Below are positions 63,063 to 63,950 of a stretch of DNA of 64,000 bases, in pieces. The stretch lies in the NCBI GenBank assembly GCA_965219575.1, contig OZ244779.1, positions 1,994,585-2,058,584 on the forward strand, given 5' to 3'. The DNA comes from Candidatus Oxydemutatoraceae bacterium (lineage in GTDB: Bacteria; Pseudomonadota; Gammaproteobacteria; Poriferisulfidales; Oxydemutatoraceae). The notes under the pieces were generated by a model. It was not told where the DNA came from. It was given only the letters and a program-made list of their open reading frames with translations, and did not search any database. The translations under genes were made by a program, and so were the position numbers. The stretch's first letter is position 1; each line of letters begins with the position of its first letter.

Positions 63063-63950
63063 CGGCAACCATTCCCCTCCTGTGGAGGGGCAGGCTTTAC
63101 CTGACGGGGTGGTTGTAATCGTGGGGCTGTTGAAAAAGTATCCACAAACCGTAGGGGCGGACTTGTATGTCCGCCCGTGACGCGTTGGTCGGCACGATTT
63201 ATACATTCATTCACCCGATTTATGGAAACCAAAACCATGCGGCGCAAGCGGTTGCAGTTGTGCAAAAACAGTACTTTTTCAACAACCCCCAAGGTTCCGC
63301 GCAAGCTAATTCCCCTCCTTTGGAGGGGTGGCCTATGCATTTTGCAATGCATGCGTTTAGCAGTCATGTCGAGGTTCTGAACGAAGTCACGCCGATTGAC
63401 CTACTGGTTCAATCGGCGGTTCTATTCAGCCTGACGGGGTGGTTGCCAAGGGGGGCTGTTGAAAAAGTATCCACGAACCGTAGGGGCGGACTAACATGTC
63501 CGCCCGTAACGCGTTGGCCGGCACGATTTATACATTCATCCATTCAATTTATGGAAACCAAAACCATACGGCGCAAGCGGTTGGTGTCGTGCAGAACGGT
63601 ACTTAAGGGCAGACACACAGGTCTGCCCCTACGGCTTGGTGGTTATTATAAATTCACGACGCAAGCGGTTACGGTTGCACGCCGGCGATACTTTTTCAAC
63701 AGCCCGCAAGGTTCTGCACTAGTTAATTCCCCTCCTTTGGAGGGGTGGCCTATGCATTTTGCAATGCATGCGTTTAGCAGTCATGTCGAGGTTCTGAACG
63801 AAGTCACGCCGATTGACCTACTGGTTCAATCGGCGGTTCTATTCAGCCTGACGGGGTGGTTATCAAATATGGAGACCATCATCGGGTGGTGCAAGCAGTT
63901 ACAACTGTTCAAAAACAGCACTTTTTCAACAACCCCATATGTCGATTACA
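63063..63950. repeat. Long mosaic palindromic-unit array including a 140-bp segment duplicated at 63300-63440 and 63720-63860
   Basis: At least 3 GGGCGGAC/GGGCAGAC hairpins, CCCCTCC..GGAGGGG x3, GCCGATTGACC..CAATCGGC x2. Confidence 0.85.

Follow-up and report, generated by a model that had tools for sequence, protein, structure and literature searches.

The question raised by the 64,000-nt stretch analyzed here (the window; positions 1,994,585 to 2,058,584 of contig OZ244779.1 from a Candidatus Oxydemutatoraceae bacterium) is what kind of DNA fills its intergenic regions with arrays of short palindromic modules, one of which directly follows dnaG. A first-pass annotation had described six modules, (a) to (f), as independent palindromic units resembling bacterial interspersed mosaic elements (BIMEs), the mosaics formed by repetitive extragenic palindromes (REPs). 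We found it probable, at about 0.75, that the arrays are instead accretions of non-autonomous elements, namely MITEs (miniature inverted-repeat transposable elements) bearing the ends of IS1182-family insertion sequences (ISs), together with small hairpin units, all nested in one another. The observation of the arrays was thus confirmed, and the interpretation first placed on it was partly supported.

The window was divided into coding and non-coding DNA by a gene map of open reading frames (ORFs) and Pfam matches, and repeat coverage was counted for repeats with at least three other copies. Repeats covered 5,881 of the 10,809 non-coding nt (54%) but just 371 of the 53,191 coding nt (0.7%), which answers the suggested check on depletion from coding sequence. 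The description of the arrays as mosaic, extragenic and hairpin-rich held. At least 100 nt of repeats was present in 17 intergenic regions, in exact agreement with the earlier count of at least 17 arrays in 64 kb, and one more region contained 50 nt; the window has 22 gaps of at least 100 bp. Array-bearing gaps were convergent, tandem and divergent alike, and, as had been reported for the modules, elements lay in both orientations, divergent promoter regions included. All six modules were recovered at or near the coordinates originally assigned to them. Motif (f), GGGGCTGTTGAAAAAGT, occurred 34 times with up to two mismatches, compared with 0.01 expected after shuffling, and the hairpin (a) pattern GTAG-GGGCRGAC-N6-GTCYGCCC occurred 17 times with up to one mismatch, compared with 0 expected. 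Module (b), CCCCTCC-N3-GGAGGGG, was found 12 times, the (c)-type hairpin 15-16 times, (d) 14 times, (e) four times and GCTACTGCA four times. A plasmid database searched with array DNA gave no match. The flagged array spans 63071-63936, its first base lying 8 nt past the dnaG stop codon, with unique DNA beyond.

Motif (f) is a terminal inverted repeat (TIR) of 17-19 bp, GGGGCTGTTGAAAAAGT(A), whose plus and minus copies pair up in the window to enclose at least 13 elements of 167-292 bp. For the main family, MITE-A, 17 copies from the window and its relatives aligned collinearly from end to end, with invariant cores and modular indels. The order was TIR, about 12 nt, GTAG-hairpin (a), core (d), a GGCGCAAGCGGTT box (X-box), optionally an inverted hairpin (a') with a second box, and TIR. 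Because this order is fixed in the end-to-end alignment, (a), (d) and (f) are parts of one family. Copies differed by an extra box, by the (a') segment, or by a hairpin (c) sitting inside an (a) or (a') loop. MITE-A copies have no coding capacity, are numerous and share a collinear interior, as MITEs do. A second family with the same TIR, MITE-B, has, like its B units, a core of hairpin (b) plus CAGCCTGACGGGGTGG and is 141-150 bp long in relatives. Modules (c) and (e) belong to one hairpin family with common flanks, GGTTCTGcACAAtGTCA and GGTTCTATT, a TACT loop and covarying stems, and are nested in the loops of (a) and of B. Both filled and empty paralogous forms were present in the window, for (c) in REP loops and for the C-long insert in B. 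The junction B2/G (GGGGTGGTyGy NNNNN, then A, then NNNNN rTCTGCAC) holds 11 of the 13 A copies in the window; it is uninterrupted at 50547-50580 and within MITE-B of relatives. The view of the modules as independent BIME-like palindromes therefore failed, since (f) is a TIR, one element family contains (a), (d) and the GGCGCAAGCGGTT box in collinear order, a second has (b) as its interior, and (c) and (e) are nested. The finding that would count against that view had been named beforehand as modules being fragments of a MITE with termini and target-site duplications (TSDs); this is essentially what we observed, for several nested families and not for one element.

From left to right the flagged array consists of the following segments, all on the plus strand (TIR-L and TIR-R, left and right TIR).
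63071..63122, plus strand: B unit directly after the dnaG stop, with hairpin (b) ATTCCCCTCC-TGT-GGAGGGG, then CAGGCTTTACCTGACGGGGTGGTTGTAATCGT (fold z = -3.1).
63123..63289, plus strand: MITE-A short form, 167 bp, with TIR-L 63123-63139, GTAG-REP (a) 63151-63176, core (d) 63177-63238, X-box 63239-63272 and TIR-R 63273-63289.
63290..63451, plus strand: G module, B1 hairpin, C-long and B2; C-long is a 94-nt insert (63333-63426) containing hairpin (c).
63452..63706, plus strand: MITE-A long form, 255 bp, lying between 5-bp direct repeats, CAAGG (63447-63451, 63707-63711), with TIR-L, REP (a) 63480-63505, core (d), X-box, (a') GGGCAGAC..GTCTGCCC-CTAC 63607-63632, second X-box and TIR-R 63690-63706.
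63707..63861, plus strand: second copy of G, B1, C-long and B2, a tandem duplicate with a 417-bp period and 96% identity to 63272-63449.
63862..63936, plus strand: X-box and TIR-R, a solo right end closing the array.

The first B unit is also present at the orthologous place in L114 and L115 (L numbers denote sequenced loci). The short MITE-A at 63123..63289 is flanked by ATCGT and CAAGG, and because these flanks are mismatched and leave no TSD the copy is probably recombinant. The C-long insert of 63290..63451 replaces the small CAGGC-GCA-GCCTG hairpin of B2; the unfilled form of B stands at 50427-50460, and the insert occupies the same position in L030 of a related genome.

The TIR connects these elements to the IS1182 family. 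When species-representative genomes were scanned for the exact 17-mer, at least 112 stretches from many phyla were found, a spread that is a lower bound and in which some single matches are probably due to chance. In five of the scanned loci the TIR encloses an element of 1.5-1.83 kb. Full-length ISs with an identical TIR are present at L081 3515-5329 and 5509-7335 and in L124, L027, L033 and L064. Two of these copies belong to OZ241323.1 (L081) of Candidatus Porisulfidus, a genus of gammaproteobacterial sponge symbionts (PMC12988363), and L124 carries one more. With NF033551, the model for transposases of the IS1182 family (cut-off 270), the IS ORFs reached 379.5, 356.5, 340.4 and 341.5 bits, and they contained the Pfam domains DUF772, DDE_Tnp_1_6 and DDE_Tnp_1. 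Annotated IS1182-family elements on plasmids of Rickettsia (pHJ51, cGGGCTGTTGAAAAAGT / ..AAT), Bdellovibrio (GGGCCTGTTGAAAAATC) and Legionella (cGGCCTGTTGTAAAAGC) have near-identical ends, so the TIR is a trait of this IS1182-family clade. It stays unchanged while the adjacent transposases are just about 40% identical (L033 vs L081). In the literature, the TIR sequence gave just unrelated primer matches.

The scan also returned several TIR arrangements elsewhere. The exact 17-mer bounds MITE-like pairs of 120-200 bp in Bacteroidales and Hydrogenedentota metagenome-assembled genomes (MAGs), it was present on several contigs of sponge-associated Nitrospinota, and in Planctomycetota it lies within GGGACAGT...ACTGTCCC hairpins. 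Examples among the loci L002-L113 are L023 6530-6724, L040 4500-4650, L072 3079-3230, L037 2315-2475 and L062 360-564.

Other candidate parents of the MITEs were considered and rejected. The window contains a 753-bp IS1595-family element at 51416-52168 (transposase 51462-52136), which interrupts a TPR-repeat gene (50926-51447, 52179-52805), and an IS3-family element at 55219-56303 (orfA 56037-56303; orfB, with rve/HTH_21, 55219-56043), which adjoins the array upstream of gltB. Neither is a parent; the TIRs of the IS1595 element, GGTACTTGACTAGTTTAGGGA, and its 8-bp TSD, TAAAGTTA, are unrelated to the arrays. The possibilities of IS1016-group or IS903-like ends and of a Tn3-type origin (GGGG start, 5-bp TSD) were dropped in favor of the IS1182-family copies with the identical TIR. 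An Rpn-family (PDDEXK_2) nuclease gene at 53129-54094 was considered as TIR-bounded cargo, but its flanks do not support this. Such genes lie between arrays or beside IS1182 copies also at L114 1-2013, L125 1161-2024 and L121 2072-2153, the loci including a Rickettsia plasmid; this proximity could be coincidence or related to module shuffling.

Insertion left traces both in the window and in relatives. Clean 5-bp TSDs flank the window elements at 63452-63706 (CAAGG) and 50478-50663 (ATCGT), and in relatives 4-bp TSDs (ACAT/ATGT, GAAT, AAAT) were found at 10 of 14 un-nested TIR pairs. In relatives the loop of the hairpin GGGAGGGC-TAACAT-GCCCTCCC is interrupted by three IS copies and at least six MITEs, with ACAT duplicated, and one further precise insertion lies between purE and purK. 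IS1272, a member of the IS1182 family, is reported to target stem-loops with arms of 9-12 bp and loops of 4-6 nt (PMC5678879). A composite of B and A acting as a single element with its own TSD was rejected, no TSD being present at three array boundaries.

The elements of the remaining arrays in the window are as follows.
43006..43257, plus strand: MITE-A long form, 252 bp, perfect 17-nt TIRs, with B2 on the left and G'-C on the right.
43258..43518, plus strand: chimera ending in TIR-R, in which hairpin (c) joins a G'-C unit to the right portion of a long-form MITE-A.
46206..46497, plus strand: MITE-A long form, 292 bp, with hairpin (c) within the (a') loop.
50478..50663, plus strand: MITE-B-like element, 186 bp, TIR-bounded, interior B1, B2 and G'-C, flanked by the 5-bp direct repeat ATCGT; its architecture corresponds to the MITE-B of relatives.
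35291..35547, minus strand: MITE-A long form, 257 bp.
30742..30986, minus strand: MITE-A, 245 bp, with an extra X-box and hairpin (c) in the REP (a) loop.
20944..21151, minus strand: MITE-A, 208 bp, with X-boxes at both ends.
20710-20943: further MITE-A copy adjoining the previous one and running into the 3' end of ORF 19237-20787.
10218..10426, minus strand: MITE-A, 209 bp, with B units on either side.
12034..12202, minus strand: MITE-A short form, 169 bp, unique flanks, the left flank duplicated at 9947.
17617..17819, plus strand: MITE-A, 203 bp, whose REP (a) loop contains hairpin (c).
17547-17616: unit of TIR and (e) hairpin just before the previous element.
44852..45022, plus strand: TIR-bounded element, 171 bp, composed of TIR, X-box, REP with nested (c), and TIR.
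54215..54462, plus strand: TIR-bounded element, 248 bp, with a degenerate REP and with (c) and B1 nested inside.
56497..56760, minus strand: MITE-A upstream of gltB with one TIR absent, orthologous to a complete copy in L114.
4374..4640, plus strand: MITE-A-like element with TIR-L and a degenerate right end, inverted REP hairpins at 4443-4468 and 4603-4628.

The arrays turn over quickly and are restricted to a narrow lineage. The window repeats were 75-86% similar to repeats of three Ca. Porisulfidus MAGs, and the window DnaG was 94% and 91% identical to that of two of the three, which places the window in a member of this genus, on a 2.37-Mb contig. In the window the array after dnaG extends over about 875 bp; a strain whose DnaG is 97% identical (sample ERZ25070844) has about 340 bp there, and the same place has other nested content at 94% identity and other elements at 91%. 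Upstream of gltB, an orthologous MITE-A copy ends differently in different strains, and for this reason we consider that MITE-A copies exchanged sequence; the chimera at shared modules (43258-43518) and the 417-bp tandem duplication likewise point to exchange between copies. The trkH-gltB spacer is 130 bp in L117 (82% DnaG identity) and 794 bp in L115. No modules were detected in 21.7-kb samples of relatives at 82, 79, 72 and 60% DnaG identity, in which the spacers were compact.

Genes and predicted ORFs beside the arrays are affected as well. ORF 19237-20787 (516 aa) reads 78 nt into a MITE (20710-20787), its stop being the TAG within a GTAG head, and at about 1725-1735 of L115 trkH obtains a new stop from a (c)-type unit that begins at its stop codon (GCGCAAATGA in L117 vs GCGCAAATAG followed by AACCGCC in L115). 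ORFs crossing arrays had no Pfam matches and are probably spurious. They include L001 4863-5759, where the called gene is 298 aa long, and window 63167-64000, 42909-43250, 9868-10254 and 34963-35361. A family of small genes near arrays encodes proteins of about 80-96 aa starting M-x-x-IALYNTLRKIP-x-VSD, for which the gene caller recorded no Pfam domain. Two form an inverted pair at L001 5705-5995 (plus) and 6587-6829 (minus) with arrays around them, and others recur by arrays in relatives (L116 9089-9328 and 9611-9862; L115 2143-2373).

In order to account for these features, we propose that the miniature elements are moved in trans by a DDE transposase of the IS1182 type. Its insertion would prefer hairpin loops and other repeat copies, so that older copies would receive the new ones and genes would be avoided. 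Shared modules would then recombine, and the resulting shuffling, duplication and deletion of segments would give the mosaic pattern and the fast turnover. The termini, the collinearity, the TIR common to MITEs and IS, the TSDs, the loop insertions in relatives, the turnover between strains and the lineage restriction are observations; we infer mobilisation in trans, any current activity in the window genome, and where the B and C units came from.

Several results weigh against this account. No IS1182 transposase gene or remnant was found within the window, and among the best 120 listed homologues of the Porisulfidus transposase none lay on the 2,369,097-bp window contig, although more distant copies are possible. 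As no close homologue was recorded on the contig, the window elements may be inactive relics of a burst; another possibility is that they depend on a more distantly related IS1182-type enzyme. MITEs and ISs had no sequence in common other than the TIR of 17-19 bp. Just two of the 13 TIR-bounded window elements have a clean TSD, a few more matching at 4 of 5 positions, and the comparisons between strains (after dnaG, upstream of gltB) gave no single clean empty site with a TSD. The window A copies lie not in REP loops but at the B2/G junction, where a hairpin was looked for and no fold was found (z = 0.05). Copy number comes in part from tandem or segmental duplication, as seen in the 417-bp repeat and in the flank common to 9947 and 12034. 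Finally, B and C units lack TIRs, and the proposal does not account for how they spread.

A first alternative is that the arrays are REP/BIME or REPIN (REP doublet) arrays in which hairpin (a) is cut and copied by a REP-associated tyrosine transposase (RAYT), the TIR-like motif being incidental. Hairpin (a) appears REP-like in its sequence: each of the 17 pattern matches in the window carried a GTAG head on one side only, and all 19 genuine (a) hairpins of a scan of the window and the L001 extension had a one-sided GTAG/CTAC. Four stem variants, GGGCGGAC, GGGCAGAC, GGGCGGAT and GGGAGGGC, occur across genomes, each perfectly complementary, with changes on both sides at 4 of the 8 stem pairs. 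The claim that the stem of (a) is kept through compensatory change thus held, both sides being altered with complementarity retained. The variant GGGCAGAC...GTCTGCCC on which that claim had rested is real, at 43161-43182 and 63607-63628, the second having been placed about 7 nt away from its true position. The (a) hairpins were chosen with at most two mismatches, which makes their percentage paired circular but not the types of compensatory change. Inverted doublets of the form GTAG-hairpin ... hairpin-CTAC, about 123 nt apart, are present in long elements, and tandem units of box and REP in relatives. This spacing is long for a REPIN, however, and no (a) hairpin in the window is solitary; each lies at a fixed distance from the TIR in a collinear element that is TIR-bounded or half-bounded. 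RAYT biology does not predict a TIR exactly common to IS1182-family elements, and TSDs of 4-5 bp flank the TIR-bounded units. A RAYT-like ORF was not found in about 0.3 Mb of clade DNA, a weak negative from tblastn with an approximate E. coli RAYT query and a small sample. Because (a) carries the REP signature, a RAYT keeps some probability, but as the source of the arrays we consider it unlikely.

A second alternative, that the hairpins are terminators, mRNA stabilisers, small RNAs or protein-binding sites kept by selection to regulate neighboring genes, seems very improbable to us. Hairpins (a), (b) and (c) are indeed stable as single strands (z = -3 to -5.3), are extragenic and have covarying stems, and certain arrays, such as the one upstream of gltB, adjoin promoters or stop codons. 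Nevertheless, no T-tracts follow hairpins (a) and (c), so that these are not terminators, and one copy of (b) alone scored as terminator-like, weakly. Nor is a role in ending transcripts supported by the distribution of the elements, which lie in both orientations and in gaps of all three kinds (convergent, tandem, divergent), divergent promoter regions among them. With Rfam, just a tRNA reached the gathering score in the window, and 62900-64000 gave no match even at E <= 1. Array content at orthologous sites, moreover, differs at 91-97% DnaG identity, and modules were not seen in the regions sampled at 82% or less. The third alternative, spread of an ancestral block by unequal crossing-over and segmental duplication with no transposition, is suggested by the 417-bp tandem duplication in the flagged array, the left flank common to 9947 and 12034 and the chimeric junctions at shared modules, but it hardly agrees with 17 separate loci having unrelated unique flanks, with the TSDs, or with the precise insertions in relatives, in hairpin loops and between purE and purK.

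The searches of the window gave three further observations. The mechanical start of ORF 26043-27968 (DUF3450-ExbB) falls within the tRNA gene (26028-26101, Rfam 65 bits), and the true start must be further downstream. Just upstream of an AAA_14/DUF4143 ATPase gene (43639-44826), three tandem units of about 22 nt, TTTTTACTCAAT-NNNN-ATTGAGTA, each a small palindrome, occupy 43520-43625 and together look like an operator. In-frame tandem repeats with periods of 84, 123, 66 and 63 nt (13-339, 13092-13706, 14105-14434 and 14754-15320) sit inside large Glug/adhesin-like or unannotated ORFs.

Mosaics with a small vocabulary, and small units lying within the hairpins of larger repeats, are known also from pneumococcal BOX elements and from the nested small dispersed repeats of cyanobacteria; unlike those repeats, to which they have no sequence relationship, the present elements have termini from a defined IS family. 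IS1397 and ISKpn1 insert in BIME loops. Bacterial MITEs include Correia/NEMIS of Neisseria, RUP of pneumococcus and MITEAba12 (PMC6382973; review PMC3184786). The window elements resemble these in being 150-300 bp long, non-coding, multi-copy and intergenic, with TIRs identical to those of an IS, many internal hairpins and, at two elements, clean short TSDs. They differ in that a single TIR serves several mutually nested families, that a REP-like GTAG hairpin is carried as cargo, that the density is very high (54% of window intergenic DNA), and that few TSDs are preserved in this genome and no transposase was seen in the window.

The partner IS belongs with the IS1182 family, scoring above the NF033551 cut-off and having the TIR of the Rickettsia, Bdellovibrio and Legionella plasmid elements, and it inserts at stem-loop targets of about 22 bp, as is reported for IS1272 (PMC5678879). 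IS1272 is reported to replace the target inverted repeat and to make no TSD (PMC5678879), whereas the present insertions preserve both arms and duplicate 4 bp of the loop. The window elements themselves are gene-less derivatives and not IS copies. Hairpin (a) shares with the REP/BIME/REPIN-RAYT systems (PMC3116915, PMC3337134) a GC-rich palindrome of 22 nt, a one-sided GTAG, an extragenic location, a high copy number, covarying stems and occasional inverted doublets, and the arrays are BIME-like mosaics. In contrast to REPs and REPINs, (a) is here never a free-standing singlet or close doublet but a component of TIR-bounded elements, and the TIRs and TSDs point to DDE transposition. BIMEs consist of REP units in alternating orientation with short defined linkers and no TIRs, whereas the "linker" (f) is here a TIR. 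ISPpu9, a REP-targeting IS110-family element of Pseudomonas putida (PMC12288879), provides a parallel to the ISs and MITEs that insert precisely in the REP-like loop in relatives; in the present case the IS family is IS1182 with a DDE transposase, and the target hairpin is itself carried by related MITEs.

We also offer, tentatively, a model in which MITEs carry near their ends the type of GTAG-hairpin whose loop the IS1182-type transposase prefers. Each insertion would then plant new landing pads, and arrays might in this way seed themselves and grow by nesting, with genes left untouched. A RAYT might use this hairpin too, which would couple two transposition systems. The case is a genuine instance, of unusual density, of selfish DNA of a known kind, to which elements bringing their own landing pads would add an as yet unproven twist. 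It connects stem-loop targeting with a clade of the IS1182 family that has a TIR conserved across phyla. For annotation, it means that gene callers place spurious ORFs over such arrays and that real genes run into the elements. For the organism, the arrays would record a burst of nested MITEs, specific to its lineage, in a sponge symbiont whose genome is small (about 2.4 Mb), making up about half of the intergenic DNA of the window and turning over between strains 91-97% identical in DnaG, and the palindrome vocabulary of this genome would be mobile DNA with defined ends.

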